Below are positions 13,399 through 64,000 of a DNA stretch of 64,000 nucleotides, one piece after another. This DNA comes from Rhynchopus sp. YZ270_cl-10. Taxonomy: Eukaryota. The stretch spans positions 1,550,001 to 1,614,000 of the forward strand of contig OZ037844.1 of assembly GCA_964035575.1 (NCBI GenBank), given 5' to 3'. The translations under genes were made by a program, and so were the position numbers. The notes beneath the pieces were generated by a model. It ran no database searches. It was given only the letters and a program-made list of their open reading frames with translations, and was not told the DNA's origin. Numbering within the stretch: the first letter of the stretch is position 1; every line of letters starts with the position of its first letter.

Positions 13399-13822
13399 TT
13401 TCCAGGACAGACTGCACCGTGTGGAGAACATGGTCAGATCACTCTTCTCACCACCTGGGTATGCTTTTAACACCAAAAACTACTTTTTGTTCAGGGCATT
13501 TGTCCTGGGAAACCCAGTTCACCCAGTGCGCACACTCCGTTTGCAACCAAAAGAGTGTGCCTTTGTACACCCCCTCTGGTATAAAACAGATAAGTAAGAC
13601 CACCACTCTTCTACCCCAGTACAGCACCTACCTGCTTTTTTGGTTTTATAGACCACCCAAATACAACAATTCACCGCACACCACACCTTTTCAAAAGTAA
13701 TCCACACACCCCCACCCACGCAGCAGGGGGGGGCCTGTTCACTCATTCAACCCCATACCCCATACCCCACGCACCCACATACATCCTCTCTTGGCAACCT
13801 TGGTTTTCCCCGTGGCGGTGTT

Positions 13823-25640: not shown

Positions 25641-28600
25641 ATGCTGCGCTGTGTGCACGCACTCTCACTTCTGTGCATTGTGTGGGGCGTTGTTGTGCCT
25701 GCAGAGCACTATGACTCGTACACACCTGCCCCTGGGGTGGAGGTGAGCGGGTTCTTCCATCGTGATGGGTACCTGCTGATGGGGACAGTGGGGAAAATAA
25801 TGCAGCTGTCGATCGACACAGCCCTGAAGCAGGTCGTGCACGCAGGTGAGAAGGTGTTTGCAGACGTGACGTCGTGGGTGCTGCGACAAGAGGACGGCAA
25901 CGTTATCCGAATGCTCGTGCTCATGACAACACCGACAGGACTCAAGTTCGGGAAGCTCGTGTGCCAGCGGCCCGTCTCCGCGTTCAATGGCCAGATCAGA
26001 ACCCTGCCAGGCTCCCCAAACGTGCGTTGCTCCAAAATAGACCAGCACAACACCAGAGACTGGATGTACATGTGCTGTGACACACCCGTGCTCTACATTG
26101 GTAACACATATACCGCTGCACACACATCAGTGGCCCTCCCAGGGAACTGTGTCGACACGACGTATGACGCCGTGAACAAGCGTCTGTACGTGGCACACCC
26201 AACTGGTGTGGTTGTGTATGACGCAACGACGCCAGATGCATTAGTGGAGTTGCCTGCAAGAAACTTTGCGAAGGTGGGTATCGTGACGTTGCAATACAAA
26301 AAAAATGACAACTTTCTGACTATGCTTGCCGAAAGCCCAACATCGCCTGGTCAGACATCTGTGCAGACGTTTCCGCCCGACGGGACAGCGTACAATGACG
26401 AGATCAGCATTGGTGCTGCGTCACGGCTTGGGTGTATCAAAGACGCGATTGCGGTGGTCTACGACCAGACAGACACATACCGGTACAATGCATTGCCTTC
26501 TTTGACAAACGAAGGTGCGATGCCAGGAGGTGTGTGGCAGGTGGGGCCTGGCACACCCACGATGTCGTGCATCTACTGTGAGACGAAGTGGCTGTTCTAC
26601 ATGTCGTACGACACACTGCATGTGCACTCCACTGACTCAGTCACCATAGAATCGACTGCTGTCCCTCCTACGTTGGCGCCAACTCCAGCTCCACCAACAC
26701 TACCACCAACACCAGCACCTGCAACACCATCGCCACCTACACCTGCACCGCCAACTCCAGCGCCACCAATACCACCACCAACACCATCACCACCAACTCC
26801 ATCGCCACCTACGCCATCACCTCCGACACCATCACCGCCGACTCCATCGCCACCAACACCAGCACCACCAACGCCATCACCACCGACACCTGCACCGCCA
26901 ACTCCTTCACCACCGACACCATCACCACCAACTCCTTCACCACCGACTCCATCGCCACCAACACCAGCACCACCAACGCCATCACCACCGACACCTGCAC
27001 CGCCAACTCCTTCACCACCGACACCATCACCACCGACTCCATCACCACCAACTCCTTCACCACCGACTCCATCGCCACCAACACCAGCACCACCAACGCC
27101 ATCACCACCGACACCTGCACCACCAACTCCTTCACCACCAACGCCATCACCACCGACACCGTCACCACCAACACCTGCACCACCGACACCATCACCACCA
27201 ACTCCAGCTCCACCAACTCCTTCACCACCAACACCATCACCACCGACACCATCACCGCCAACTCCAGCTCCACCAACTCCTTCACCACCAACACCATCAC
27301 CACCGACACCATCACCGCCAACTCCAGCTCCACCAACTCCTTCACCACCGACTCCATCGCCACCAACACCAGCACCACCTACGCCATCACCACCGACACC
27401 GTCGCCACCAACTCCAGCTCCAACGACTCCTTCACCACCAACACCTGCACCACCTACGCCTGCACCGCTAACACAATCACCACCCACACCAGCACCACCG
27501 ACGCCGTCGCCACCAACACCGACCCCTCTTACCCCAGCACCTGTGACGTCTGTGCCCCTGACACTCACACCCGCTACCCCTGCACCTCCAACACTTGCAC
27601 CAACAACACCACCACCTGCAACACCTGCACCGCAAACTCGTGCCCCAGCGACACCTTCACCGCCAACACCAGCACCTGCCACATCCGCACCCACACCACT
27701 GCCAATGGGGAGCACATTTTCGCCCACTGCAGTGCTGACCCCTGCACCTGCCACCCCATCACCACCAACACCTGCACCACAAACTCTTGCCCCAGCGACA
27801 CCTTCACCTCCAACACCCGCACCAACACCACTGCCAATGGGGAACACATTTTCGCCCACTACAGTGCCACTGACCCCTGCACCACCAACACCCGCACCCA
27901 CACCACTGCCCATGGGTAGCACATTTTCGCCCACTGCAGTGCTGACCCCTGCACCTGCCACCCCATCACCACCAACACCTGCCCCCACACCACTCCCAAT
28001 GGGGAGCACATTTTCCCCAACAACTCTCGTGCCACCCACATCAACACCAACGATGCTTCCTGCCGGGCAGACTGTTGTGCCTTCGACACCTCTCCCACAA
28101 ACAGCAACGCCCACAACGTTGCCTGCCACCGCACTGCCTGCAGGCACCACATTGGCACCACCGACACCTGCACCAACAACACTGTCCCCGCTGACGCTGT
28201 CGCCACCAACACACGCGCCGCTAACAGCACTGCCACTCACACCCCTGCCACCGACCTCGCAGCCCTTGGCTTCTTCGGCACCAACTGCAGCACCCGCAAC
28301 AACAGTGCCCCACACTGCACTGCCGACAACAGCACCAACACCCGCGTCAACGCTTTCCCCTGACCTGAGTGCAGGGCCCTTGGTTGCGACCCCACTGCCT
28401 TCGTCTGACATGCAGTCGCAGGTGCCACTCACACAGACACCGACTCCAGCACCACTCCCGACACCCACAGATGCTGTTGATGGGACGCCTTCGCCAAGCA
28501 GCCTTGCTTCTGAGGAGTCTGTGGGTAGTGGCAGTGGGAAGCTTGACTACGTACGTGCACACCACAGTGAAGACGTCGTGGAGAAAATGGACAAGGCAAC

Positions 28601-29984
28601 TGTGACGGCAGAAACAGTCTCCGGAGTGTCCAGTGCAGCGTCTGTCGTGTCCGGAGCCTCTGCCGGGTCAGCCCTTCGTCTTGCTGTGGTGGGGCAGCTG
28701 TGCAAGCTTGGCCAGCCGATGGAGGAAAGGACGTACCCACTGCTGCTGCACCCGACACAGTGGGTGCTGTTTGGGTCGCAAGCAGCTGGGGTTGTGGTGG
28801 GGAACTTCCTCATCACTATCTCGTTCTGGCTTGTGATGAGCATTGTTGTGCAGGCTGTGCATTGCACTGGCTACTTCAAGAGCATGGATGCCATGGGTCT
28901 GTGCAGGTTCCCTTCGTCACCGCTGTTTGTGTTCCAGTTTCTCTTGCAGGGAACATCGCTTGGTGCAATGGCACTTGTGTTCTATCCACCGTCAACACCA
29001 CTCTTCCTGCTTGGCGCTGCGAGTCTTATGTTCTGCTGCGTTGTGCCGTTCTACGTGCTGTACTCTGTGTGCAACGGCGTTCCCCGGAAGGCGTACTACC
29101 TGCACGACGTGGACGTGGACAGGAAGACGTGGCTGAGTGCACTGATCGGGCCTGGTGAGTGGGTGAGCAGGTTTGAGACGAACATGTGGTCGTACCGCTA
29201 CGCAGCGGTGGTGCGTCCGTACCGACAGGAGTGGGCGTGCTACTCGTTTGTTGAGATGGCGGCAAGTCTGACTGTGGCAGCTGTGGACAGCACCACTGCG
29301 CACAGCCTTGTTGCCTGTGGACACCAGAAGACGGGGAGTGCTGTGGTCTTCATTGTGCTTCTCGTTGCGGAGATATGCGCGTGGCCACATGCACGTGCAC
29401 GTGACGGGTACATGCTGCCTGCGTTCCAATGCATGCAGGCGTCTGCACTGCTGCTTATGGCTACGGGGTACTACGTTGAGAACACAGACTACTGGACGTT
29501 TGGTGCGGCAGCCAAACTGCTTGTTGCGTGTGCAGGGGTGCTTGTCCTCAAGGTTGTGCTGGACGTGTGTTCTGAGATCTACATCTACTGCACGGACCGG
29601 AGGAACAGACTGCACGAGCTTGCACTACAGCCGAAGCCGCTTTCCATGTGTGCTGTGGAGGCAGGTCTGCAGAGGCACCACTCTGGGAGCAGAGCCGACA
29701 CAGAGGAGCTGGAGGAGCTGACACGCGTGAGCCTCCTGAGCGACGATGCACTGGATGTCACTGCCAGATACTTGTCCGAAATCCAGTCGCATGTGTCGTT
29801 CACATCGATGTCAAGCATGCCGTGCATTCAAGTGGAGCCCAGCGATCAGGTGTGTTCGCCACGGCGCGACAGGGGTATGTCCAGCACCTTCACTGCGCTG
29901 AAGACAGGCGACTCACTGCTGAGCAGTGAGTCCGTTGACGCGAACCGTTGGCACAGACGGCGGAGCCAGACCTTTAGGGCTTGA
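25641..29984 (+). CDS. Mucin-stalk multipass surface protein, paralogue 2 (likely start [11 protein letters not shown])
   Basis: ORF 25560-29984; ATG 25641 aligns with the starts of paralogues 3 and 4 and begins a signal peptide; ([10 protein letters not shown])n stalk. Confidence 0.9.
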
Positions 29985-31528: not shown

Positions 31529-31727
31529 GATGGCATGATGGCATGATGGCATGATGGCATGATGGCATGATGGCATGATGGCATGATGGCATGATGGCAT
31601 GATGGCATGATGGCATGATGGCATGATGGCATGATGGCATGATGGCATGATGGCATGATGGCATGATGGCATGATGGCATGATGGCATGATGGCATGATG
31701 GCATGATGGCATGATGGCATGATGGCA
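31529..31727. repeat. (GATGGCAT)n 8-mer array, ~25 units, inside a probable non-autonomous element (~31512-32208)
   Basis: Inverted units at 31409-31475; internal segments shared with 43985-44250. Confidence 0.9.
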
Positions 31728-37282: not shown

Positions 37283-37402
37283 CCCCCCCCCCCCCCCCCC
37301 TTTTGAAATACCAGTTCCTACTGTACATTGCACAACACTACCTAGACCCACCCCACGAACAGCGTTTTGAGCACCCACTCCCCCCCAGCCCATCAGTAGA
37401 CG

Positions 37403-40400
37403 ATGCGATGTGTGCACGCACTCTCACTTCTCTGCGTTGCGTTCGGTGCCCCTGTCCCACCCGAGCACTACCATTCGTACACACCTGACCCTGGGGTGGA
37501 GGTGAGTGGCCTCTGTGAGCGTAGTGGACACCTCGTCTTGGGCATGGCGGGGAAGATCCAGCAGCTTCGTTTCGACAATCCCTTGAAGCAGGTCGTGCAC
37601 GCAGGTGAGAAGGTGTTTGCAGACGTGGTGTCGTGGGTGCTGAGCAATGACGACGCTAACACGAACGGCGTGCTCACACTCATGACAACACCGACGGGAC
37701 TCAAGTACGCAAAGCTGTACACCCAGCAGCCAACGGCCCTGTTCACAGGCTCTGTCAAAATCCTGACAGGCTCCCCAAATGTGCGTTGCTCCAAAATAGA
37801 CCAGCACAAAAGCAACAGAGACTGGATGTATATGTGCTGTGATACACCTGTGCTCTACATTGGTCACGTATCATCCGGTGCACAAACAACAGTGGCACTC
37901 CCAGGGAACTGTGTCGACACGACGTATGACTCGAACAACCAGCGTCTGTACGTGGCACACCCAACTGGTGTGGTTGTGTATGATGCAGCAACGCCAAATG
38001 CATTAGTGGAGTTGCCTGCAAGAAACTTTGCGAAGGTGGGCATCGTGACGTTGCGGTACTTCAAAGACGACAACTTTCTGCTCATGTTTGCCGAAAGCCC
38101 AACATCGCCTGGTCAGACATCTGTGCAGACGTTTCCGCCCGACGGGACAGCGTACAATGACGAGATCAGCATTGGTGCTGCGTCACGGCTTGGGTGTATC
38201 AAAGGCTCAGCTGCAGTCGTCTACGACCAGACAGACACATACCGGTACAAGGCTGCAGCTTCTCTGGTAAACAAAGGTGCGATGCCAGGAGGTGTGTGGC
38301 AGGTGGGGCCTGGCACACCCACGATGTCGTGCATCTACTGTGAGACGAAGTGGCTGTTCTACATGTCGTACGACACACTGCATGTGTACTCCACTGACCC
38401 TTTGGTCGTGGCAGCTTGGACAGACGCTCCTCCCACGCAGGCACCACCAACTCCACTTCCACCACTGCCGACAACTGCACCTGCCACGTCTGCACCACTG
38501 ACACTTTCACCACCAACACCTGCACCTCTCACACCTGCCCCTGCCACACCTGCACCTCTCACACCATCTCCGCCGACGTCTTCACCCGCCACACTTGCTC
38601 CTGATACCTCTGCACCAGCGACACCATCGCCACCGACTCTTGCCCCTGCTACACCTGCACCTGACACACCATCACCACCAACACCTGCACCGCTGACGTC
38701 CTCACCACTGACATCTGCACCACTGACGTCTGCACCACTGACGTCCGCACCACTGACGTCCGCACCACTGACGTCCGCACCACTGACGTCCGCACCACTG
38801 ACGTCCGCACCACTGACGTCCGCACCACTGACGTCTGCACCACTGACATCTGCACCACTGACGTCCGCACCACTGACGTCTGCACCACTGACGTCCGCGC
38901 CACTTACGTCTGCACCACTGACATCTGCACCACTGACGTCCGCGCCACTTACGTCCGCACCACTGACGTCCGCACCACTGACGTCTGCACCACTGACGTC
39001 CGCACCACTGACGTCCGCACCACTGACGTCTGCACCACTGACGTCCGCGCCACTTACGTCTGCACCACTGACGTCCGCGCCACTTACGTCCGCACCACTG
39101 ACGTCTGCACCGCTGACGCCGCCACCTCTCACTTCTGTGCCTGCAACACCTGCACAGGTGACACTTACGCCCACGACATCTCCTGCAACAACTGTGCCAG
39201 TAACATCGTCACCACCTACATCTTCACCTGCAACACCTTCGCCACCAACGGTTGCACCCACAACCCCTTCACCCCCAACAACATCACCTGCGACACCATC
39301 ACCCCCAACACTCGCACCTGCCACACCTCTACCTGCAACATCTGCACCTGGGACTGCAGGACCTACCGCAGTGCCACTGACCCCTGCGCCTGCAACACCG
39401 TCGCCACCAACACTTGCACCTGTAACACCCGCACCAGCGACACCTCTCCCACAAACAGCAACGCCCACAACGTTGCCTGCCACCGCACTGCCTGCAGGCA
39501 CCACATTGGCACCACCGACACCTGCACCAACAACACTGCCCCCGCTGACGCTGTCGCCACCTACACTGGCACCACCAACACACGCGCCGCTAACAGCACT
39601 GCCACTCACACCCCTGCCACCGACCTCGCAGCCCTTGGCTTCTTCGGCACCAACAGATGCTGCTTCGCCAAGCAGCCTTGCTTCTGAGGAGTCTGTGGGT
39701 AGCAGTGACAGTGGCAATGGCAGTGGCAGTGGCAGTGGGAAGCTCGACTACGTACGTGCACACCACAGTGAAGACGTCGTGGAAGAAATGGAAATTGTAG
39801 GGGTCACAACAAAAGTGGTCTCCGGAGTGTCCAGTGCAGCGTCTGTCGTGTCCGGAGCCTCTGCCGGGTCAGCCCTTCGTCTTGCTGTGGTGGGGCAGCT
39901 GTGCAAGCTTGGCCAGCCGATGGAGGAAAGGACGTACCCACTGCTGCTGCACCCGACACAGTGGGTGCTGTTTGGGTCGCAAGCAGCTGGGGTTGTGGTG
40001 GGTAACTTTGTGATCACTGTCGCGTTCTGGTTTGTGATGTGCATTGTTGTGCAGGCCGTGTTCTACACTGGCTACTACAAGGGTATGGATGTCATGGGTC
40101 TGTGTGCATTCCCTTCGTCACCGCTGTTTGTGTTCCAGTTTCTCCTGCAAGGAACGGCACTTGGTGCGATGGCACTGCTGTTCTACCCACCGTCAACACC
40201 ACTCTTCCTGCTTGGCGCTGCGAGTCTTATGTTCTGCTGTGTTGTGCCGTTCTACGTGCTGTACTCTGTGTGCAACGGCGTTCCCCGGAAGGCGTACTAC
40301 CTGCACGACGTGGACGTGGACAGGAAGACGTGGCTGAGTGCACTGATCGGGCCTGGTGAGTGGGTGAGCAGGTTTGAGACGAACATGTGGTCGTACCGCT

Positions 40401-41125
40401 ACGCAGCAGTGGTGCGTCCGTACCGACAGGAGTGGGCGTGCTACTCGTTTGTTGAGATGGCGGCAAGTCTGACTGTGGCAGCTGTGGACAGCACGACTGC
40501 ACACAGCCTTGTTGCCTGTGGACACCAGAAGACGGGGAGTGCTGTGGTCTTCATTGTGCTTCTCGTTGCGGAGATATACGCGTGGCCACATGCACGTGCA
40601 CGTGACGGGTACATGCTGCCTGCGTTCCAATGCATGCAGGCGTCTGCACTGCTGCTTATGGCTACGGGGTACTACGTTGAGAACACAGACTACTGGACGT
40701 TTGGTGCGGCAGCCAAACTGCTTGTTGCGTGTGCAGGGGTGCTTGTCCTCAAGGTTGTGCTGGACGTGTGTTCTGAGGTTCACGTCTACTGCACAGGGCG
40801 CAGGGACAGGCTGCACGAGCTTGCACTGCAGCCGAAGGTTGATGTGGAGGTGCCGGCGACACCAGCGCTAGAGATAGTGCGGACGCCACCTGCCAGGCAC
40901 GTCTCTGACGTGCAGCTGTCGCACTACTCCTTCGTGTCGATGCCGAGCTCCTCCTGCCTGCACGCCGAATCCTTCGATGAGGTGTCTCTGCCTCCTGGCC
41001 GTGCCATGTCCAGAGGAATGTTGGACGTAGGTGTGCTGTCCACAGCAGACGCATCGTCACGCCACAGTGGCTACTTCGACATGCCGTACGAGAGCAGACG
41101 GCGGAATTCAAACTTCACTGTCTGA
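37403..41125 (+). CDS. Mucin-stalk multipass surface protein, paralogue 3, 1240 aa
   Basis: Same architecture; stalk contains a 15-bp (LTSAP)n minisatellite at ~38693-39115. Confidence 0.9.
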   Translation: MRCVHALSLLCVAFGAPVPPEHYHSYTPDPGVEVSGLCERSGHLVLGMAGKIQQLRFDNPLKQVVHAGEKVFADVVSWVLSNDDANTNGVLTLMTTPTGLKYAKLYTQQPTALFTGSVKILTGSPNVRCSKIDQHKSNRDWMYMCCDTPVLYIGHVSSGAQTTVALPGNCVDTTYDSNNQRLYVAHPTGVVVYDAATPNALVELPARNFAKVGIVTLRYFKDDNFLLMFAESPTSPGQTSVQTFPPDGTAYNDEISIGAASRLGCIKGSAAVVYDQTDTYRYKAAASLVNKGAMPGGVWQVGPGTPTMSCIYCETKWLFYMSYDTLHVYSTDPLVVAAWTDAPPTQAPPTPLPPLPTTAPATSAPLTLSPPTPAPLTPAPATPAPLTPSPPTSSPATLAPDTSAPATPSPPTLAPATPAPDTPSPPTPAPLTSSPLTSAPLTSAPLTSAPLTSAPLTSAPLTSAPLTSAPLTSAPLTSAPLTSAPLTSAPLTSAPLTSAPLTSAPLTSAPLTSAPLTSAPLTSAPLTSAPLTSAPLTSAPLTSAPLTSAPLTSAPLTSAPLTSAPLTSAPLTPPPLTSVPATPAQVTLTPTTSPATTVPVTSSPPTSSPATPSPPTVAPTTPSPPTTSPATPSPPTLAPATPLPATSAPGTAGPTAVPLTPAPATPSPPTLAPVTPAPATPLPQTATPTTLPATALPAGTTLAPPTPAPTTLPPLTLSPPTLAPPTHAPLTALPLTPLPPTSQPLASSAPTDAASPSSLASEESVGSSDSGNGSGSGSGKLDYVRAHHSEDVVEEMEIVGVTTKVVSGVSSAASVVSGASAGSALRLAVVGQLCKLGQPMEERTYPLLLHPTQWVLFGSQAAGVVVGNFVITVAFWFVMCIVVQAVFYTGYYKGMDVMGLCAFPSSPLFVFQFLLQGTALGAMALLFYPPSTPLFLLGAASLMFCCVVPFYVLYSVCNGVPRKAYYLHDVDVDRKTWLSALIGPGEWVSRFETNMWSYRYAAVVRPYRQEWACYSFVEMAASLTVAAVDSTTAHSLVACGHQKTGSAVVFIVLLVAEIYAWPHARARDGYMLPAFQCMQASALLLMATGYYVENTDYWTFGAAAKLLVACAGVLVLKVVLDVCSEVHVYCTGRRDRLHELALQPKVDVEVPATPALEIVRTPPARHVSDVQLSHYSFVSMPSSSCLHAESFDEVSLPPGRAMSRGMLDVGVLSTADASSRHSGYFDMPYESRRRNSNFTV

Positions 41126-42310: not shown

Positions 42311-43049
42311 GGTGTGGCTGAAACCAGCAAATTTCACTGCTAAAGAACTGCTAACAAACTGCTAAATAATACCCTTTTTTTAGGGGTGGTGTATAAAAAC
42401 ATTTTTTTACCTTGGTTTTTCCACTCCCCCTGTTGGCGCGCCTCCACTCTTGCATACCCATGTGTGACCCCACCGTTGAACGCAATCGACTCGCTGAGTC
42501 AAAAGAACGCACAGAACGGGGCTGGTAAAAATCACGAAAAACGCGTACCGTGCGCCTGCGGCGCCCACAACGTGAGTTTTTCCCCTGAGTATACTGTGTA
42601 TACTGTGTATACTGTGTATACTGTGTATACTGTGTATACTGTGTATACTGTGTATACTGTGTATACTGTGTATACTGTGTATACTGTGTATACTGTGTAT
42701 ACTGTGTATACTGTGTATACTGTGTATACTGTGTATACTGTGTATACTGTGTATACTGTGTATACTGTGTATACTGTGTATACTGTGTATACTGTGTATA
42801 CTGTGTATACTGCGGAAATTGACCAAAAACGAGAACTTGTCCATTTCGGCGAATTGACCCCACCACTGGCCGGACGGATTCCGGAAATGCAAATGCCGGC
42901 GTTAAAAAGCTCACCAACGAAAAAAAAAAAAAATTTTTCCAACACCCGTGGGGAAAAAATTTTTTATACACCACCCCCCCAAAAATGCATGCTAACAAAG
43001 TGCTAACAAACTGCTAAATAATACCCTTTTTTTTGGGTTCAGCCACACC
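42311..43049. mobile_element. GGTGTGGCTGAA-TIR element carrying a (TATACTGTG)n array (42589-42812, ~25 units)
   Basis: GGTGTGGCTGAA...TTCAGCCACACC; subterminal TGCTAA repeats. Confidence 0.8.
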
Positions 43050-47400: not shown

Positions 47401-48059
47401 CCGTTCACACTACGCCACCGGTGCCCCATTGGGCTTCCTTTTTACATCTTCTGTTGTTGGCCGCAGGGTACTTTGAGCCTTCATCTGCGGAGGGCTGACA
47501 TCGCGGGTCAGTCAACCGGTAATGCAATCCAACAACTCTTCTTCTGTTTAAAAGATGTGTTTTGCACGAAAGGCACATTCATTTCAACTTTACTGTTTAT
47601 AAAGCTCAAAAGCAAAAGCCCATTCTTCCCTTTCTTTGAACACAACACCCCTGATGTCCCCTTGTCAAGCCGGCTACCAGGACCTGGAGATACGGAGACA
47701 CCTGCATCCTATGATAGGATCTACACCTTTTTTCTGCAGTGTAGTCGTTTCGTTGTGGCCACAGACTCCCATCGTCCTGGGGAACTTCTATCGTAGTGTG
47801 TGTGTGTGTGGGCACAGCGTTCTTGAGGTTGTTCCAGGTGTCCAGGTGATGCGATTCGATCGTCGGAACCATGCAGTAGAGTAATCCCTTGGCAATGTCT
47901 GCTTGTCTGACCGACTGCCATGTGTTGCGGCAGAAACTGCCCACATCTCCACATCTGTTTTCAAAGGATATTTTTTTTGGTTTTGTAAAAAAAACACCTC
48001 ATAACAGCATTACACTCCACCATATCCAGACACAGCGCATCCTGAAGGTGCGTGCAGGC

Positions 48060-51000
48060 ATGCTGCGCTGTGTGCACGCACTCTCACTCCTGTGCATTGT
48101 GTGGGGCGGGGCCCCAGCGCCACCGATCGTGCCTGCAGAGCACTATGACTCGTACACACCTGCACCTGGGGTGGAGGTGAGTGGCCTCTTCGAGCGTGAC
48201 GGCTACCTCATCATGGGCGTGGTGGGGAAGATCCAGCAGCTCGCCATCGACACAGCCCTTAAGCAGGTCGTGCCTGCAGGTGACAGGGTCTTCGCAGACG
48301 TGACGTCGTGGGTGGTGCGCAGTGACGACACTAAACCGACCAGCATGCTCGCACTCATGACAACACCGACAGGACTCAGGTACGCGAAGCTGACGTCCCA
48401 GCGGCCAACGGCCTTGTTCCAAGGCTCTGTCCAAACCCTGACAGGCTCTCCAAACGTGCGTTGCTCCAAACTCGAGCAGGACAAGTATCAATCTAATTGG
48501 CTGTACATGTGCTGTGACACACCCGTGCTCCACGTGGTGGACTTAAATGGTGCACAAAAGAAGGTGACCCTCCCAGGGAACTGCGTCGACACTACGTATG
48601 ACGCCGTGAACAAGCGTCTGTACGTGGCACACCCAACTGGTGTGGTTGTGTATGATACAAGAACGCCAAACGCAATAGTGGAGGTGCCTGCAAGAAACTT
48701 TGCCAAGGCGGGTATCGTGACGTTGCACTTTAACAGAAATGACAACTTTCTGACTATGCTTGCCGAAAGCCCAACAGCGCCTGGTCAGACATCTGTGCAG
48801 ACGTTTCCACCCGACGGGACAGCGTACAACGGGCAGATCAGCATTGGTGCTGCGTCACGGCTTGGGTGTATCAAAGACGCGATGGCGGTGGTCTACGACC
48901 AGACAGACACATACCGGTACAAATCGATGCCATCCTTGAGGAACGAAGGAAAGAAGCCAGGAGGTGTGTGGCAGGTGGGGCCTGGCACACCCACGATGTC
49001 GTGCATCTACTGTGGGAAGACTTGGCTGTTCTACATGTCGTACGACACAGTGCATGTGTACTGTACCGACCCAGTGGTCCTAGGTTTGACTCCAGCACCA
49101 ACACCCGCACCCGAAACAGCTGCACCACTAACACCTGCACCTATGACGTCTGTCCCGCCAACAGTTGCACCTGACACAGAAGCCCCGGCAACACTTTCGC
49201 CACCTACGTCTGTCCCGGCAACACTTTCGCCACCTACATCTGTCCCGCCAACACTTGTTCCTGCAACGTCCTCGCCCAATAAAAGCCCCACTCCAGATAC
49301 AGCTGCACCCATCACCTCTTCACCTGCAACACCTTCGCCACCAACGGTTGCACCCACAACCCCCTCACCCCCAACAACATCACCTGCCACACCATCACCC
49401 CCAACACTCGCACCTGCCACACCGCTACCTGCAACATCTGCACCTGGGACTGCAGGACCCACCGCAGTGCCACTGACCCCTGCGCCTGCGACACCGTCGC
49501 CACCAACACTTGCACCTGTAACACCCGCACCAGCGACACCTCTCCCACAAACAGCAACGCCCACAACGTTGCCTGCCACCGCACTGCCTGCAGGCACCAC
49601 ATTGGCACCACCGACACCTGCACCAACAACACTGTCCCCGCTGACGCTGTCGCCACCTACACTGGCACCACCAACACACGCGCCGCTAACAGCACTGCCA
49701 CTCACACCCCTGCCACCGACCTCGCAGCCCTTGGCTTCTTCGGCACCAACTGCAGCACCCGCAACAACAGTGCCCCACACTGCACTGCCGACAACAGCAC
49801 CAACACCCGCGTCAACGCTTTCCCCTGACCTGAGTGCAGGGCCCTTGGTTGCGACCCCACTGCCTTCGTCTGACATGCAGTCGCAGGTGCCACTCACACA
49901 GACACCGACTCCAGCACCACTCCCGACACCCACAGATGCTGTTGATGGGACGCCTTCGCCAAGCAGCCTTGCTTCTGAGGAGTCTGTGGGTGACAGTGGC
50001 AGTGGAAGTGGGAAGCTCGACCACGTGCGTGCACACCACAGCAAGCACACGGTACAGACAATGGACAAGGCAACTGTGACGGCAGAAACAGTCTCCGGAG
50101 TGTCCAGTGCAGCGTCTGTTGTGTCCGGAGCCTCTGCCGGGTCAGCCCTTCGTCTTACTGTGGTGGGGCAGCTGTGCAAGCTTGGCCAGCCGATGGAGAA
50201 AAGGAAGTACCCACTGCTGCTGCACCCGACACAGTGGGTGCTGTTTGGGTCGCAAGCAGCTGGGGTTGTGGTGGGGAACTTCCTCATCACTATCTCGTTC
50301 TGGCTTGTGATGAGCATTGTTGTGCAAGTCGTGGTGTGCACTGGGTTCTTCACCAATGCGGATGCCATGGGTCTGTGCAGGTTTCCTTCATCACCGCTGT
50401 TTGTGTTCCAGTTTCTCTTGCAGGGAACATCGCTTGGTGCGATGGCACTTGTGTTCTATCCACCGTCAACACCACTCTTCCTGCTGGGCGCTGCGAGTCT
50501 TATGTTCTGCTGTGTTGTGCCGTTCTACGTGCTGTACTCTGTGTGCAACGGCGTTCCCCGGAAGGCGTACTACCTGCACGACGTGGACGTGGACAGGAAG
50601 ACGTGGCTGAGTGCACTGATCGGGCCTGGTGAGTGGGTGAGCAGGTTTGAGACGAACATGTGGTCGTACCGCTACGCAGCAGTGGTGCGTCCGTACCGAC
50701 AGGAGTGGGCGTGCTACTCGTTTGTTGAGATGGCGGCAAGTCTGACTGTGGCAGCTGTGGACAGCACGACTGCACACAGCCTTGTTGCCTGTGGACACCA
50801 GAAGACGGGGAGTGCTGTGGTCTTCATTGTGCTTCTCGTTGCGGAGATATACGCGTGGCCACATGCACGTGCACGTGACGGGTACATGCTGCCTGCGTTC
50901 CAATGCATGCAGGCGTCTGCACTGCTGCTTATGGCTACGGGGTACTACGTTGAGAACACAGACTACTGGACGTTTGGTGCGGCAGCCAAACTGCTTGTTG

Positions 51001-51377
51001 CGTGTGCAGGGGTGCTTGTCCTCAAGGTTGTGCTGGACGTGTGTTCTGAGATCTACATCTACTGCACGGGGCGCAGGGACAGGCTGCACGAGCTTGCACT
51101 ACAGCCGAAGCTCTCTGGTGTGGAGGATGTGGAGGTCGCGGAGATGCTGCTGGTGTCTGCCAAGCACGTCTCTGACGTGCAGCTGTCGCAGACGTCGTTG
51201 ACGTCGCTGCCGAGCACCTCCTGCCTGCACGTCAAGCCCTACGAGAAGGCACCGTCGCCTGCGACAGTCACATTGGACGTTGGTGTGCTGTCCACAGCAG
51301 ACGCATCGTCACGACACAGTGGCCACTTCGACATGACGTACAAAAGCAAACGGCGGAGTTCGAACTTCACAGTCTAG
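48060..51377 (+). CDS. Mucin-stalk multipass surface protein, paralogue 4 (likely start [11 protein letters not shown])
   Basis: ORF 47889-51377; first in-frame ATG at the conserved signal peptide is 48060; shortest stalk. Confidence 0.9.
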   Translation: MLRCVHALSLLCIVWGGAPAPPIVPAEHYDSYTPAPGVEVSGLFERDGYLIMGVVGKIQQLAIDTALKQVVPAGDRVFADVTSWVVRSDDTKPTSMLALMTTPTGLRYAKLTSQRPTALFQGSVQTLTGSPNVRCSKLEQDKYQSNWLYMCCDTPVLHVVDLNGAQKKVTLPGNCVDTTYDAVNKRLYVAHPTGVVVYDTRTPNAIVEVPARNFAKAGIVTLHFNRNDNFLTMLAESPTAPGQTSVQTFPPDGTAYNGQISIGAASRLGCIKDAMAVVYDQTDTYRYKSMPSLRNEGKKPGGVWQVGPGTPTMSCIYCGKTWLFYMSYDTVHVYCTDPVVLGLTPAPTPAPETAAPLTPAPMTSVPPTVAPDTEAPATLSPPTSVPATLSPPTSVPPTLVPATSSPNKSPTPDTAAPITSSPATPSPPTVAPTTPSPPTTSPATPSPPTLAPATPLPATSAPGTAGPTAVPLTPAPATPSPPTLAPVTPAPATPLPQTATPTTLPATALPAGTTLAPPTPAPTTLSPLTLSPPTLAPPTHAPLTALPLTPLPPTSQPLASSAPTAAPATTVPHTALPTTAPTPASTLSPDLSAGPLVATPLPSSDMQSQVPLTQTPTPAPLPTPTDAVDGTPSPSSLASEESVGDSGSGSGKLDHVRAHHSKHTVQTMDKATVTAETVSGVSSAASVVSGASAGSALRLTVVGQLCKLGQPMEKRKYPLLLHPTQWVLFGSQAAGVVVGNFLITISFWLVMSIVVQVVVCTGFFTNADAMGLCRFPSSPLFVFQFLLQGTSLGAMALVFYPPSTPLFLLGAASLMFCCVVPFYVLYSVCNGVPRKAYYLHDVDVDRKTWLSALIGPGEWVSRFETNMWSYRYAAVVRPYRQEWACYSFVEMAASLTVAAVDSTTAHSLVACGHQKTGSAVVFIVLLVAEIYAWPHARARDGYMLPAFQCMQASALLLMATGYYVENTDYWTFGAAAKLLVACAGVLVLKVVLDVCSEIYIYCTGRRDRLHELALQPKLSGVEDVEVAEMLLVSAKHVSDVQLSQTSLTSLPSTSCLHVKPYEKAPSPATVTLDVGVLSTADASSRHSGHFDMTYKSKRRSSNFTV

Positions 51378-51935: not shown

Positions 51936-52039
51936 GCCTGCATGCCTGCATGCCTGCATGCCTGCATGCCTGCATGCCTGCATGCCTGCATGCCTGCATG
52001 CCTGCATGCCTGCATGCCTGCATGCCTGCATGCCTGCAT
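51936..52039. repeat. (GCCTGCAT)13 8-mer array
   Basis: Direct reading. Confidence 0.97.
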
Positions 52040-56837: not shown

Positions 56838-57367
56838 ATGGACGTGCACTTCGAGGATTTCAAAGCGACTCAGCACACAGTCGAGGTGGGTGAAGATGAC
56901 ACGGCGGAGGACTTGCGGCGGAAGGTGGCGTTTGCAGTGGGGTTGCCTGCAGACAGCTTTTGCATGAGTTTCGGAGTCGAAGCGATAGGCGAAGGATACG
57001 ACATGACGCAGCTAAGTGCTGGTGACACAATCGTGCTGAAGAAGTCGATGAAGTACGAAGCCCTTGCAGCGCTTCATGCGTTGGGTGAGACAGACCTGAC
57101 GGCCGAGAGGTTGAAGAAGGTGACGAATCCTGAGGTGGCGTGTTTGCTTCTGCAGGCGGGGGTTGCGACTGTCATTCCTGATGGGTTCTTGACGAAGGCA
57201 TCCTTAACGCGACTTGATCTGAGTGCTGTGTCCTTTGTGACACAGATTGGAGACAAGTTTCTTTTGGAATGCACCTCGTTAACAAGTATTGACCTCTCTG
57301 GGTTGAGCAATGTGACGCGGATTGGCAGTCACTTTCTTTACGGCTGCAGAGCTTTAACCACCCTGGA
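56838..57367 (+). pseudogene. Ubiquitin-like N-domain + BspA-type LRR gene, interrupted by retrotransposon
   Basis: MDVHFEDF...TVEVGEDDTAEDLRRKVA (Ubl-like), then VTQIGDKFLLECTSLTSIDLSGLSNVTRIGSHFLYGCRALTTL LRRs; the pattern breaks mid-codon at the expected Asp of TLD; read-through stop at 57404. Confidence 0.8.
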
Positions 57368-57497
57368 GGGATACACACAACGTACACAAAAAGAAAGAAT
57401 ATAAACAATGTTTTCGTACATGGTGTCGAAGTCACGTCCAGCCTCCACGCGGAGTATCCCGGGCAACGATCCGTCACACGGATCGGCCAAGTGGACG
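57368..57497 (+). ncRNA. HDV-like self-cleaving ribozyme
   Basis: P1 GGGATAC(57368-74)/GTATCCC(57454-60); P2 CGTCCA(57435-40)/TGGACG(57492-97); P3 GCC/GGA (one mismatch); L3 TCCACGC; P1.1 CC/GG; GGGCAAC; P4 GATCCGT/ACGGATC; J4/2 GGCCAA with candidate catalytic C57487. Confidence 0.85.
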
Positions 57498-57626
57498 CCA
57501 CACCCGCCGGCGCCTGTGTGCTGCAGGTCGTGGAACTGCTATTGCAGTGACGAGGTGACGGCGGCGGCGGAGCAGGCGCACTGGACTGAGGGGCTACGGC
57601 AGCCCGCCTACCCGGGGGCAGGCGGC

Positions 57627-60272
57627 ATGAAGCGCAGTGCAGGGGAGGAGAGGAAGGATCCCGATGTCTTCATCGGAGTAGTGACGGGCGAGAAGGTGCG
57701 GGACACGACGGGGCTGTGTGCGCTGGCGCGTGATGCGACGGAGGAGGAACCAGGAACGCACTGGGAAGTAACCCGCCGCCTGGCAAACATCACCAAGGCA
57801 GAAGCCGCGTACGAGGGCATCCTGCTCGGGCTTCAAGGGGTGGCCGACGGGTCGTACCCGAAGGGCACCCACGCGCGCGTGTGGGTCACGCACTTGGTGG
57901 TCTGGAGGCAGGTGGCTGAGGGGCACGCCTGCGACTCGTCGTTGCTGAAGCAGAGGCTGGAGAAGGTGAAGGCGCTGCTGGGCGAGTTGAAGAAGAGGGG
58001 GATAAGGGTATCGCTGCAGCACTGCGCGAAGGCGGGGAAGGGGATGAAGGAGGCAGAGAGCAACGCCCAGCTGGTTGCAGGAGGGGTGTACGCCGCAAGG
58101 GGATGCAGGACGGAGACGCTGGCAGCTGCCGTGCAGCCAGGTGTCAAGGGACACCTGGAAAGATGGGGGTTGCGATGGGAGGAATGTGGGGGCAAGGGGG
58201 ACTGTCTGTTCCGGTCGGTGGCGTGGTCTGTGGAGCGGTCCCCGAATGGTCACGCAGGCTTCCGCAGGCTCGCAGTTGAGGTGATGAAGGAGCAGAAGGC
58301 ACACTACAGCCCATTTGTGGACGAGGGGTGCATTGATGCATACCTGGCAGGCATGGCGCAGCTGGGGACATGGGGGGACCATTTGTGTCTCCATGCGATC
58401 GCCAAGGTGATGAAGGTCCGCATTGTTGTGCTTGACGTTGGACCGGAGAACGCGCTACGGGCTACGCTGATCGACGGGCAGTCCGACGGGCAGCTGGCAG
58501 AAGGAACTCCGGAGAAGGCTAACCTCACCTTCACGGAGTCTGACGTAGTCCTGGGGTTCGAGGGGGTACACTACGGTGCTGTGGAATCGGCAGGGTTGAA
58601 GGTGGGGGAGGAACTTCTGTGCGCAGTGGGACAACCGCAACTGCACGTACCGGCTACAGCTGTGAAGGGGAAGAAGAAGGCGACGGCGGTGACCCAGAGC
58701 GCAGCGGAGGATGCACTGAACCTGGCGCCCCAGGGATGGAAAATACCGGTGTGGGATGCAGTGCCCAGCAATGTGGAAGGGGTGACGCAGGTGGCGGCAG
58801 TTGCGTGGAAGGCGAGCGAACTTCTGCAGGGGTTACAGTTGCTGCACCAACTTCCGCAGATGGTGATTGTGTCCCGTTCGAAGTGTACGGGTGCAGCGCG
58901 CACGAAGAAGGCGAAGGTGGCGGTGAAGACGGAGCGGGGAGCAAAGGTGGAAGAAGTGTGGCTGTCGTCCATGACAACTAACTTGGACGACGTGGTGAAG
59001 CCGGTGGAGAGCACGTTCTCGAGCAAGCTGATTACGCTGATGGGCAGAACGATGTTGCTCCAGGGGGAGGGGCGCACAAAGGGAGAGCAACGCATGCGTC
59101 GGTGGTACGGGTTGCAGGGGGTGCGGTGTGGACGCGGCTTGGAGAGAGGAGGATGGATGGAGATGTCTGTGGACGTGACGGAGGACATGGTGTGCGCCAT
59201 GCTGAGGAGAAGCGGACGGGAAGGGGTATTTGTGCGGCACCTCTTCCAGGCAAAGGAGTACGGGGACTGTGGGTTGTTGTGGAAGGCGGAACCGCTGGAG
59301 TCTGCTCTGGCACGGCTGGACCTTGTTGAGGAGAACATGGAGGATAGCGTGCGCGGACTCGCCGTAGGGGAAGGGGGCTACGCGGTGCGGGTGATGAAGG
59401 GGGACTTGGAGGCTGCGAAGAGGCTTCTTGTGCAGGAGGACGTCGTCGTGCAGGGACACAGGTACGAGATTGGGGGAATTCCGGCGAACACGTCGGTCCA
59501 GCTGTTGTGTGAGGGGCTGGTGAGGGAGGCGAGCTGGACGGTGAAGGTGCTGTCGCGAGGGCACAAGTGGACGGTTACGTCGGATGTGCCGTGCCCGAGC
59601 ACAGAAGGGGTGCTGGAGGTGGGTGGATTGGTGTTGACGGTGTGTGCGGTGAAGGAAGGGCGTCGTGTGCAGAAGGTGGGTGCGAATCCGTGGGGTTTCC
59701 CTCTGGCGCAGTTCCCAGTACCGAGGCAAGGAGCAGCAGAGAGCGGCGCTGGCACGTGGGCGGCTAAGGCGAGGGGATACGCACCACCTGCAGCTCGACC
59801 CCACCCTGCAACAGGGGCACCGGCGGCTCCGGCACCTCCCGCAGCTTCATCAGCAGCGCAGGACGAGATAGAGATGATGAAGAAGGAGATGAAGGAATTG
59901 CGGGAGATGATGAAGGGCGTCATGGAGCAGCAGAAGGAGATGTTGGAGGCACAGAAGCGGATGATGGGACAGCCGCAGCAGTCGGCACCAGTCGCGCAAC
60001 CGCCGCAGCCTCTCGACATGGAACAGCTCAGAGCAGAATGTGCTGAGATGAAGGAGACGGTGCAGCAGTGCAAGGACCAGAACGTGCAGCTGGCAGCGGA
60101 GAGCAAGCGGCTCACGGAGGAGAACGAGGCGCTGAAGAAGGCAGCTCGCGAGGCCAAGGACAAGGCCAGGGATGCTCAAGATCGTGGCGGTGAGGAGAAG
60201 AAGAAAGATACGACGACGGACGAGAACAGCCGCCCCCGCGACACGGACAATAACCGAGAAAGGTCGTATTAA
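57627..60272 (+). CDS. Retrotransposon ORF1: degenerate RNase H-like domain + OTU cysteine protease + possible RRM-like region + coiled coil (881 aa)
   Basis: TKAEAAYEGILLGL / VWVTHLVVWRQV / VSLQH..AESNA follow the RNase HI pattern; GDCLFRSVA...WG...HY are OTU motifs; E/K/M/Q-rich coiled coil near the C-terminus. ATG 57408 lies inside the ribozyme, so 57627 is preferred. Confidence 0.85.
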   Translation: MKRSAGEERKDPDVFIGVVTGEKVRDTTGLCALARDATEEEPGTHWEVTRRLANITKAEAAYEGILLGLQGVADGSYPKGTHARVWVTHLVVWRQVAEGHACDSSLLKQRLEKVKALLGELKKRGIRVSLQHCAKAGKGMKEAESNAQLVAGGVYAARGCRTETLAAAVQPGVKGHLERWGLRWEECGGKGDCLFRSVAWSVERSPNGHAGFRRLAVEVMKEQKAHYSPFVDEGCIDAYLAGMAQLGTWGDHLCLHAIAKVMKVRIVVLDVGPENALRATLIDGQSDGQLAEGTPEKANLTFTESDVVLGFEGVHYGAVESAGLKVGEELLCAVGQPQLHVPATAVKGKKKATAVTQSAAEDALNLAPQGWKIPVWDAVPSNVEGVTQVAAVAWKASELLQGLQLLHQLPQMVIVSRSKCTGAARTKKAKVAVKTERGAKVEEVWLSSMTTNLDDVVKPVESTFSSKLITLMGRTMLLQGEGRTKGEQRMRRWYGLQGVRCGRGLERGGWMEMSVDVTEDMVCAMLRRSGREGVFVRHLFQAKEYGDCGLLWKAEPLESALARLDLVEENMEDSVRGLAVGEGGYAVRVMKGDLEAAKRLLVQEDVVVQGHRYEIGGIPANTSVQLLCEGLVREASWTVKVLSRGHKWTVTSDVPCPSTEGVLEVGGLVLTVCAVKEGRRVQKVGANPWGFPLAQFPVPRQGAAESGAGTWAAKARGYAPPAARPHPATGAPAAPAPPAASSAAQDEIEMMKKEMKELREMMKGVMEQQKEMLEAQKRMMGQPQQSAPVAQPPQPLDMEQLRAECAEMKETVQQCKDQNVQLAAESKRLTEENEALKKAAREAKDKARDAQDRGGEEKKKDTTTDENSRPRDTDNNRERSY

Positions 60273-63200
60273 TCACGACCGTGGGCCTTGCCCCACTAAA
60301 GATAGTGTGCAGCAATGTGACGGCGCTGCAGACAGGCGGGAGCTCTCTGCTGAAGGTTGCGGAGGATGCTCACGTTGTTCTGGTGCAAGAGACAAAGTGC
60401 ACCGTGACGACGCAGAAGCGCCTCTCCATCGAGTACCGCGAGCAGGGTTGGCAGGTGGTGTGGGGTAAGGAGTTGCCGGAATGGAGGTCGGCCGAAGAAG
60501 CGAAATCTGGTGGTGTTGCGATTCTGGTGCAAGAGGGAATACCTGTGCTCACGAGCCCGCCCTCCTCAACCTTGGAAAAGAACCTCTGGGACTCAACGCG
60601 ATGGGTGAAGGCGAAGGTGGCGTACGGCAAAGGCAACGAGTGGATCGACGTGACCTCCGTCTACGCGCCGTCGGCGGACCCGGAGGCTAGGGAGAAAATA
60701 CTTGGCGAGGTGATGGAGGCTGCTGCAGAGCTTGGTGATATTCCTGGGGTGATTGGTGGGGATTTCAACGCAGGTCCAGGGAAATCAGGTGTGCTGGCTG
60801 CTACACTGGACACAGGATGGTGGAAGGACACTGCCGAAGAGCACGCAAGGGTGCTTGGGACGACCCCGGACAACACCTACTTCTCGGTGAAAGACGGCAA
60901 GGAGATCCGCAAGAGGCTCGATTACGTTCTGCTGAACCGAGCTGCGTGCACAGGGCTGTCGTCTGTGAAGGTTGTCCACGACTCTGGGCTCCCGCAGCAC
61001 AGACCGGTAGAGATAGCGCTGGATGTAGGTGCGTACAGGCAGATCGTGCTCGCGTACACTCTGCCGAAGCAGTTCCCTTTGGACAAGTGTGGACAAGGCG
61101 TGAAGAATGCACAAAAGGCGTTTGCGAGCAAGGAGCTGCAGTGGGGGGCGCTTCAACACCCTCAGGATAGGTGGATACAGTGGAACAAGTGGGCAGAGGA
61201 CTTCTTGCTGCAGGCGTGCGAAGGCGAGATTGAGGGCCCGACGAAGGCGTATTGCGGAAGAGGCAAAACGTTTGACCCGAAGCCGAAGCACCGGACTGCG
61301 AAGCAGAGCAAGGAAGGGGACGCTCTGACAGTGAGCCAGAGAAGGCTGACGAAGAACGTGGGCAGGCTGGAAGAATGTCGGCTGTGGTACGTGAGGAGCA
61401 ACGGTGGTGTGCCGCCACATGACGTGTGCAATTGTTGGAGCAAGGCGCGGAAGGAACTGCGTGTTCTGCTGGACGACGACTCACTGCAACAGGATATGCC
61501 TAGCGAGGAGGCTTTGGTGGATCTGTGCAGAGCCGTGCGAGTGAAGGTGTCAACGCTTGCGGACCGAGTGAAGCGGAAGCGACTGGAGGACTGGCGGCAG
61601 CGCCTACGGGATGCATGGCACAATGCTCCCAAGGCGATCTTCAAATACTGCAAGGACGAACAGTACAGGAAGATGACTGCCCTGAAGAACGAGGATGGGA
61701 AGTTCACCGCCAACGCTGAGGAGATGGACACCCTCCTGCATGAGGCGTGGATGCCGATTCTTCGCCGATATGCGGAAAAGCCAGAACCCGACTGGGGTGC
61801 GTTCAGGGAGAAGTTTACAGAAGACATCGCAGGCAAGGGGCAAGCGATGCAGATGGACAGGCTGACGGGGAAGGAGTTGCAGCAAACTCTGGGGAGGATG
61901 AAGACGCAAACTTCTGCTGGGGTGGAGGGTTGGCGCATGGCAGAGCTGAAGGCGCTTCCTCTGGTGCTGCTCGACAGGTTGGCAGATGTGTTTGATGCGA
62001 TTGAGTGTACGGGGGAGTGGCCGCCTTCTTTGATGAGAGCACTCATTGCGCTCATCCCCAAAGGGGAAGACGACACCCCGCTGAAGCAGCGACCTATCAC
62101 GATCACTTCGTGTATCTACAGACTGTGGGCGGCAGCGAGGTTGCGAAGACTGATAAAGTGGCAGGAAAGCTGGATTGGTGAGCAACAGCACGGCTTCAGA
62201 GCAGGACACAGCACTGCACACCTGTACTGGCACTTGTCGCTCAAGCTGGAGAAGGCGGTGCTGTCGGGTGACGACACAGACCAGGTATGGGGCTTCACGA
62301 TTGACTACGCCAAATGTTTCGATCGTGTGCCTCATGAGATTGTGCTATCGCTGGCGGAGGAGTGGGGCGCGCACTGGCGTATTCTTGGACCACTGAGGGC
62401 GGCGTACACTGCCATGGAACGCCGTTTCAAGTTGGGAGACGTAGGTGTGGGAGGCGCTTTCCGTACGACAAATGGTATCCTGCAAGGTTGCCCACTTTCT
62501 GTCGTGCTGTTGAACGCGCTGATGGCAGTGTGGGGATCTGCAGTGACGAGAAGGACGGGAGCAATCGCCATGGGGTACGCTGACGACGTGTATGCTGTGG
62601 CGAACACGGAAGCGGAGGTGCATGGTGCTGCGAGGGTGACGAAGGAGTTTATCACTGCTGCGGACATGGAGGTCAAGGCAGAGAAGTGCGTAGGGTTTAC
62701 CTCGAAGGAGGGAACAAAGACGAAGTTTGGACTTGGCGACGGGTTCTTCCCCGACAAGAAGCAGTTCGGGGCGGTTGGAGCAGACATTTTGGCTGGAAAG
62801 GGGAACTTCGGGCCCATCGCGCGTGAGCGTGCGGTTACTGCGCACCGTGTGTTTACGAGGGTTTCGAGTGTGCCATTATCCTTCACTGAGAAGGCACTTA
62901 TTGGCGCAAGGGGACCAATGATGGCAGCGTTGCATGGGTGTGAAGTGACAGATTTCTCGAAGCAGACCATCGAGACGTTGAGGCAAGGGGCTGCACTAGC
63001 AGTCTGGGGGCAGGGCAGGAAGCAGCGCACGCTGAACATTGTGTGGCATGTGTTGTCTCCGGTCGGGATTGATGCGCCAGCGGAGATTGTACAGAGGAGG
63101 ATGGCGGCCTTTCTCCGACTGACAGAAGATGACGGCATGCGAAGAGAAGCAGAAGAAGTGTGGAGGCTGGCACATGACCGAAGAGCGGAGCGGGAGGTGA

Positions 63201-64000
63201 GGCGGCGTGACAGGGCTTCAGATCTGGCACGTCTCCGGCGTGAGAACCCTGGGGTTGCCAACCCAAGGGTAACTGAAATGCACAAGAAGGGTGTGATAGA
63301 GTTGTTGTGGGACGACCTGGAGCGATACGGATGGCGGTGGAGCAGCTTCGACTTCTGGACCACACACATCGGGTTGAGGGTGCACGTTCGTCTGTGGGAC
63401 AAGGGCAAATGGCTGCATGAGCTGAGAGAGGGCATCCGTGCACACGCGTACCGCCTGACAGTGACGACGAGGCCGTCGATGCAGGGCATTGAGGGAGGTG
63501 TGGATCGCCAGGCGACGAACGCAGTGTGGAAGGACCGCACGACCGACAGATACCTGGCGGGCGCGATACGCGGAGCCTTGTCGGGCTCTCAGTTGGTGGG
63601 GGTGCAGCTGCTGAGGAACAAGGAGGTGGAGACTTCGTTGTGCCGATACTGTGGTGAGGCGATAGAGGACCGGAGACACGCTTGGTGGTGGTGCCCGCAG
63701 TGGGACGAAATTCGTGGAGAGGACATCGGAAAACTCCGGGTTTTGCTCAAAGACGCACCCCCGTGCTTCTTGGACTTTGGCCTGGTGCCGACGATATTCT
63801 TGCAGGAGCTGAGTGTTGCGGAGAGAGAGCAGACGGTGCGTCGTGTGCAACTGATGCTGGTCAGCATCGCGCTGGCAAGGCAGAAGTACGACGTGGAACA
63901 TGGGTTTTCGCAGAAGAAGAAGAAGCAAGCGGTGGTGGGCCAATCCCTTTTTCCTTGGGGCTGGAATCCTCAGGAGGGTGCAGTGCTTGAGAGCTACAAC
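60254..64000 (+). CDS. Retrotransposon ORF2: AP-endonuclease, reverse transcriptase, CX2CX8HX4C; open to window end; no AUG before the endonuclease
   Basis: My translation: SNV, QETK, GGVAIL, VYAP, GGDFN, RLDY, PQHRPV; LIPK, RPIT, QHGFR, DYAKCFDRV, QGCPLS, YADD (62576-62587); CRYC..H..C (63641-63694). Absent from the ORF track, consistent with no stop in the window. Confidence 0.93.

Follow-up and report, generated by a model that had tools for sequence, protein, structure and literature searches.

A variant HDV-like ribozyme fold at the 5′ end of a two-ORF non-LTR retrotransposon residing in leucine-rich-repeat genes of a probable diplonemid

HDV-like ribozymes at the 5′ end of non-LTR retrotransposons are already known, as is an insertion hot spot in a protein-coding gene family, namely the retrotransposon hot spot (RHS) of Trypanosoma (PMC7563717). 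For R2 and L1Tc, cleavage of the element RNA from co-transcripts was shown (PMC3774820, PMC3185411, PMC4035085). R2 inserts site-specifically into a multicopy transcribed gene and is released by an HDV-like ribozyme that tolerates a long J1/2 (PMC3774820); it is described as having a single ORF, a restriction-like endonuclease and 28S rDNA as target (PMC6765202, PMC4640811). The L1Tc/ingi elements of trypanosomatids, a host group with read-through transcription, carry the Pr77 ribozyme (L1TcRz), an HDV-like fold located at the first base of a non-LTR element with an AP endonuclease (PMC3185411, PMC4035085). Elements of the ingi clade possess a single ORF (PMC3894237), and both 2A and RNase H are reported for L1Tc (PMC3185411). 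An AP-type endonuclease in combination with a fixed multicopy target is also a property of the Tx1 and R1 clades (PMC4640811). The targets listed for target-specific elements in PMC4640811 and PMC8869645 comprise RNA genes, spliced-leader exons, microsatellites, telomeric repeats and transposons.

The window analysed here, that is the whole stretch of 64,000 nucleotides, contains the 5′ end of a non-LTR retrotransposon with two ORFs and an AP endonuclease. The element is seen from its 5′ side, its 3′ end being located beyond position 64000 and thus outside the window. It encodes the following features:

57408..60272, + strand: ORF1, 954 aa from the first ATG; codons 10–30 overlap the ribozyme core
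~58191–58436, + strand: OTU protease-like domain in ORF1 (Pfam OTU, E 1.7e-12; PDB OTU matches)
60262..60296, + strand: ORF1/ORF2 junction; a 6-bp hairpin holds the ORF1 stop in its loop, with GTG 60281 and another hairpin behind it
60254..64000, + strand: ORF2, encoding an AP-type endonuclease and a reverse transcriptase (YADD), still open where the window ends

ORF1 and ORF2 are both open, and P0001 and P0003, which derive from other copies, agree with the two-ORF layout. In ORF2, Pfam matches above cut-off identify an AP endonuclease followed by a reverse transcriptase of the non-LTR type, and the PDB matches of this region are LINE-1 ORF2p and R2 proteins. The full-length ORF2 relative P0003 comprises 1588 aa, the ORF2 cluster holds 33 member sequences, and the best named relatives are proteins of Diplonema papillatum with 30–34% identity, which makes a diplonemid the probable host. 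ORF1, with its relatives P0001 and P0002, is represented by two clusters that comprise 15 and 6 sequences. Among the 27 ORF2 matches there is no named ingi or L1Tc sequence, and no viral relative of ORF2 was found; a 2A motif is absent from P0001–P0003 and RNase H is absent from the ORF2 relative P0003. Blastn detected neither a second element nor a second LRR copy in the window. The first-pass annotation of this DNA had likened the locus to R2 and L1Tc/ingi, which holds for the ribozyme but not for the architecture of the element. In contrast to ingi/L1Tc, as far as their published descriptions go, the present element has two ORFs and is devoid of a 2A motif and of an RNase H in ORF2; in contrast to R2, it combines two ORFs with an AP endonuclease and an LRR target. 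Judged by these sequence features, it belongs neither to the ingi nor to the R2 elements.

P0002 is 97% identical to P0001 over residues 1–40 and 93–100% identical over residues ~554–913, with 60–80% identity in between, an ORF1 mosaic between subfamilies that suggests template switching or recombination. OTU domains recur across this group of retrotransposons (P0009, P0015 and P0022 in addition to 58191–58436 of the window); in the present element the domain is part of ORF1, and in the single-ORF relatives it precedes the endonuclease. OTU domains are also known from Ginger and Helitron transposons (PMC2836005). One of the 29 proteins checked, the D. papillatum relative P0012, contains a 2A-like motif at residues ~313–332, just before the endonuclease. 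An RNase H-like domain was considered for ORF1 residues 85–235 from motifs discerned by eye, but it is unsupported: BLAST comparison with P0009 gave an E-value of 3.3, there is no PDB match and the single-sequence model has a mean pLDDT of 43. Elsewhere, the window harbours four long ORFs on the + strand (13652–18169, 25560–29981, 37400–41122 and 47880–51377), which are spaced by ~10–12 kb and contain Thr/Pro-rich repeats; three have similar N-terminal sequences and the one at 47880–51377 has no Pfam match. Perfect or near-perfect tandem arrays of 7–9 bp units are found at 8218–9116, 12964–13258, 31529–31727, 42585–42812 and 51936–52039, the longest with 129 copies of TGGGTAC.

The element resides in sense orientation within a host gene, of which the following parts precede it:

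56838..57367, + strand: 5′ part of the interrupted host gene, which belongs to a multigene family and encodes a ubiquitin-like domain and leucine-rich repeats
57354..57367, + strand: upstream half of the target (TTAACCACCCTGGA), the sole match in the window at no more than two mismatches

The Pfam LRR_5 and ubiquitin matches of the host gene are weak and below the curated cut-offs. The break is located after the second base of an Asp codon, in the repeat motif T-T-L-D-L. Contigs of intact paralogs follow the window up to 57367 and then continue as LRR sequence, which identifies G57368 as the first foreign base; loose ends and joints at 57367 are seen in runs X6 and X8. This divergence, together with the junctions in LRR paralogs described below, bears out the 5′ end that had initially been claimed at G57368. 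Contigs X3 record 6 and X8 record 24 start at 57363 and 57362, respectively, and there are hints that the element copies may share only 5–6 upstream bases (CTGGA).

The last 42 residues of the truncated host product were used as junction query, which is able to reveal junctions with LRR genes only. This query returned 40 proteins, 39 of which are family matches. Nine of the 40, including the window's own, terminate in an identical tail of 12 residues encoded by the element, which is attached at one common repeat position and follows T-[T/N]-L. In a tenth protein, P0063, the junction follows A-N-L and 62 element residues are read in another frame, which fits a junction without host base 57367; three contigs of run X6 lack this base. 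Accordingly, ten of the 40 proteins represent different LRR paralogs fused to the element, with nine of the ten junctions being identical, a count that is biased by the query; judging by the longest contig of each, the ten are distributed over at least six contigs. Any in-frame LRR junction would give the same tail, yet the junctions of all nine proteins fall on one codon of the ~25-residue repeat. Repeats of the T-T-L/T-N-L type account for 56 of 154 intact repeats as counted by a rough regular expression, with P0069 left out and a query that favours this type. The last 24 host residues are 46–79% identical among the nine junction genes whereas the tail is invariant, and host variation sets in two codons ahead of the junction. 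One to seven repeats precede the junctions (again by rough regular expression). The LRR paralog P0066 has an unrelated tail that starts one residue before the usual junction, possibly reflecting another insertion or a frameshift at this same site.

A host tree was calculated for 38 family members, leaving out P0056, which has no anchor motif, and the bacterial match P0069. The ten junction genes need seven label changes on this tree, at least four of which are forced by well-supported branches, and a single origin was obtained in 0% of 200 bootstrap trees. Thus, the ten junction genes do not form one clade. The best reading of these sequences is that independent insertions took place at a preferred LRR sequence of a protein-coding multigene family. 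Alternatively, one or a few old insertions might have spread among the LRR paralogs by gene conversion or unequal crossing-over, for which the ORF1 mosaic between P0001 and P0002 and the weakness of 19 of the 35 inner branches of the host tree could be cited, and recombination at the insertion site has been invoked for RHS pseudogenes (PMC7563717). However, the junction genes differ in repeat numbers and last repeats, and host variation reaches to within 7 nt of the insertion point. Every conversion event would need a tract terminating only a few bases away from that point, and P0063 has a junction of its own. We therefore regard such a spread as improbable.

Independent insertion into a protein-coding multigene family, with non-LTR elements at one site and truncated products, is reminiscent of RHS (PMC7563717). 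In contrast to RHS, the target is here a position within the tandem LRR unit, which is hit in different repeats; moreover, the host family is unrelated by domain content and the architecture of the element differs. As compared to the Tx1 and R1 clades, the target consists of protein-coding repeats, a class that is absent from the target lists in PMC4640811 and PMC8869645.

The fold at the element's 5′ end begins with P1 at precisely the base where the sequence departs from the intact paralogs. It is composed as follows:

57368–57497, + strand: HDV-like fold, 130 nt, pairing checked
57368..57374, + strand: P1 5′ strand, opening with G57368, the first base of the element and the predicted +1 of cleavage
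57375..57434, + strand: J1/2, 60 nt, A-rich, weakly folded
57435..57462, + strand: P2 5′ strand, P3 with basal G·A, L3, P1 3′ strand and the GG of P1.1
57463..57485, + strand: J1/4 and the 8-bp P4 hairpin, by pairing check and nested folding
57486..57497, + strand: J4/2 with the predicted catalytic C57487 and the extra G57491, then P2 3′ strand

In P1 (57368–74/57454–60), all seven pairs are of the Watson–Crick type, with G at +1. P2 (57435–40/57492–97) is paired at six of six positions, P1.1 at two of two (C57445–G57462 and C57446–G57461), and P4 (57467–74/57478–85) at eight of eight, where 7 bp had been annotated before. L3, with the sequence TCCACGC (57444–50), matches the L3 consensus. J4/2 reads G-C57487-C-A-A-G; its candidate catalytic C precedes adenosines, as the HDV-like class requires, and falls on the catalytic position when aligned with either of the two Rfam HDV models. 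P2, P1.1 and P4 occur in nested double-pseudoknot order, and the pairing check supports the first-pass annotation in that all elements of the double pseudoknot are present in order. The G-A at the base of P3 was recovered as well: the mismatch G57441·A57453 leaves two of three pairs, which falls short of the 3-bp P3 of HDV-like ribozymes. Hence, the fold appears to be a variant HDV-like structure rather than a regular member of the class, and it likely functions like an HDV-like ribozyme. It spans 130 nt as against the 77 nt of Pr77, and its 60-nt J1/2 contains a stop codon and an ATG. In the region 57361–57370, the host CCC can pair with the first GGG of the element; the resulting 3-bp hairpin would span the cleavage site and compete weakly with P1, in a manner that hinges on the target sequence.

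In the antigenomic HDV ribozyme, the G·U wobble is positioned at the cleavage site. The wobble is drawn in the published scheme of this ribozyme (PMC2175327), whereas a G-C pair is present here, along with the basal P3 G·A and the long J1/2. In other respects, the antigenomic form resembles the fold: its J4/2 likewise comprises five nucleotides and ends in a G, namely G80 (PMC2175327), and RF00094 aligns over the core. For J4/2, the parallel is therefore with the antigenomic and not, as proposed originally, with the genomic HDV ribozyme, and G57491, listed at that time as an extra G before P2′, is indeed present but loses its status as an oddity. A theta ribozyme with elongated J4/2 is also active (PMC10879173). 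As judged by translation, the P3 G·A is common to P0001 and P0002; G57441 and A57453 are the first bases of an Ala and a Ser codon that are kept in both relatives, and contig X3 record 6 shows no difference over 57363–57490. The mismatch is thus a family trait and not the defect of one copy. By the standard of the antigenomic HDV ribozyme, in which at least 98% of the selected active variants formed any given P3 pair (PMC2175327), it is nonetheless a real defect, which may slow the predicted cleavage.

Statistical support for the fold was obtained with a descriptor that was written with the sequence already known and that tolerates the P3 mismatch. Its single match on both strands of the 64-kb window is the ribozyme locus. 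Nested folding recovers P1 with a pair probability of ~0.84 and P4 with 0.81–1.0, and the z-score of folding stability is −2.1, with 7 of 200 shuffles being equally stable. Rfam model RF00094 scores 21.1 bits over the core against a threshold of 50 (E 3.6), and RF02682 aligns on the ribozyme with 19.8 bits against a threshold of 44 (E 0.94). All copies seen are identical over the ribozyme core, hence there is no covariation signal in the helices. Two narrow pattern scans yielded two core-pattern matches in metagenome contigs and 26 looser-pattern matches in viral contigs; none of these 28 loci combines a 7-bp P1 with a P2 of at least 5 bp, and none has the full HDV fold with a basal P3 G·A. 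One could suspect that the pairing is an accidental arrangement in coding sequence, as the Rfam E-values are not significant, covariation is lacking and the descriptor was fitted after the fact. However, 300 dinucleotide-shuffled windows gave one descriptor match in total and none of equal strength, and P1 starts exactly at the junction, leaving chance as an extremely improbable explanation.

Since the fold starts with the first base that is not of host origin and the element is inserted into a gene in sense orientation, release from read-through transcription would be its natural role. What is observed is that the element occupies LRR coding sequence in sense orientation, with the insertion at one codon position shared by ten paralogs. 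The endonuclease would recognize the LRR sequence surrounding CTGGA^T as its target, the loss being tolerated by the multicopy family. Transcription of the host gene would then read into the element; D. papillatum is described to transcribe long gene clusters (PMC10161547). C57487 is predicted to drive Mg-dependent cleavage just before G57368, probably at a slower rate than in HDV. Initiation of ORF1 would occur at ATG 57408 in J1/2, and the freed element RNA would serve reverse transcription. We consider it likely that cleavage will prove measurable, and the whole account, that is an LRR-site element with an HDV-type ribozyme likely freeing its RNA from the host transcript, appears quite probable to us.

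Two observations on related systems have to be weighed here. For R2, cleavage exactly at the junction goes along with variable junctions, and retention of upstream target sequence with uniform ones (PMC3774820); by this rule, the identity of nine of the ten junctions counts against the cleavage account. In addition, well-folded ribozyme candidates of trypanosomatids are sometimes inactive (PMC4035085). The ribozyme might accordingly be slow or nearly dead, with the uncut, capped LRR-element co-transcript acting as the working RNA and a few retained target bases annealing upon integration and thereby yielding the uniform junctions, as in the R2 precedent (PMC3774820). The layout of the reading frames is compatible with this idea. 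Over the first 900 bases of the element, the host frame encounters just one stop, TAA 57402–04 in J1/2, which is followed by ACA and then by ATG 57408 opening ORF1 in the same frame; ribosomes on the LRR frame could thus stop at this TAA and restart 3 nt downstream, within J1/2. The fixed phase of insertion preserves this stop-ATG arrangement in nine of the ten junctions, and the P3 G·A shared by P0001 and P0002 would fit a ribozyme of this kind. Farther downstream, the ORF2 frame lacks an ATG until 60713 (153 codons) and is preceded by a stop within 8 nt, and ORF2 likely needs non-AUG or coupled initiation. The arrangement of ORF1 stop, GTG and hairpins ahead of ORF2 recalls SART1, in which stop-start coupling operates between the ORFs (PMC3894237). 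However, ribosomes are said to re-initiate inefficiently once they have translated a long upstream ORF (PMC3894237), P0063 is out of phase, and the variation of host residues two codons before the junction indicates that no long upstream tract is carried along. Moreover, a perfect 7-bp P1 at the junction is hard to explain without cleavage. Altogether, we judge an uncut working mRNA to be rather unlikely and favour release by cleavage.

Where ORF1 begins bears on a further possibility. The next ATGs of ORF1 are found at 57420, likewise in J1/2, and at 57627. An internal promoter comparable to Pr77 could set the RNA's 5′ end, the ribozyme being a back-up or relic and ORF1 starting at ATG 57627; in L1Tc, the first 77 nt act as both promoter and ribozyme (PMC4035085). 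The open stretch between the start sites, 72 codons at 57411–57626, arises by chance in 16.5% of shuffles, which leaves room for such a late start. However, residues 41–80 are 62% identical between P0001 and P0002 and contain in-frame gaps only, like the remaining divergent coding part, and this speaks for a coding function upstream of 57627. A constant sense position in a host gene would also benefit an element less if it had a promoter of its own. We consider a promoter-defined 5′ end unlikely, even more so than an uncut mRNA. The first 39 residues of P0001 and P0002 are identical, which may reflect recombination instead of constraint, P0002 being a mosaic; moreover, gene callers tend to pick the first ATG. 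On balance, we lean towards ORF1 starting at ATG 57408 inside J1/2, in which case the catalytic core would also be protein-coding and the ribosome would have to unfold it. No precedent for a start codon inside an HDV-like ribozyme was found in the literature searched, which covered few subscription papers.

How ORF1 may be translated depends on which RNA is used. The first-pass annotation held that uncapped RNA needs non-canonical translation. This stands as one option, but the presence of TAA 57402 three bases before ATG 57408 opens another route that starts from the capped, uncut mRNA. On the cut RNA, cap-independent initiation is a realistic though tentative option, and HDV-like ribozymes are reported to support initiation of this type (PMC6765202, citing Ruminski 2011). 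Stop-restart from capped host mRNA appears doubtful by comparison, and the same low likelihood applies to other routes taken together. Two AGs in J1/2 could be considered as spliced-leader sites; the pyrimidine content upstream of them is low, and that of the host leader is barely higher. A more speculative scheme, which we regard as unlikely, envisages a switch between translation and template: the fixed codon phase, the stop-restart in J1/2 and a dual-coding ribozyme slowed by the G·A mismatch would split the transcripts into uncut and cut RNA. If this were true, the element would exploit the host mRNA twice, using the uncut form for protein and the cut form as template.

Taken together, release by a variant HDV-type ribozyme from LRR transcripts would extend ribozyme-released retrotransposons to a two-ORF lineage outside R2 and ingi, in a probable diplonemid. 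No publication on an HDV-like ribozyme in Diplonema or diplonemids was present among the matches listed, which covered few subscription papers. If the ribozyme with its basal P3 G·A is active, search descriptors for HDV-like ribozymes will have to be widened. The locus also provides a compact test of the translation of uncapped RNA, as 130 nt accommodate the stop of the host frame, the first ATG and the catalytic core, each of which can be altered on its own. Finally, a fixed position in coding repeats would add a rare class to the targets of such elements, with each insertion truncating a member of a large LRR repertoire.
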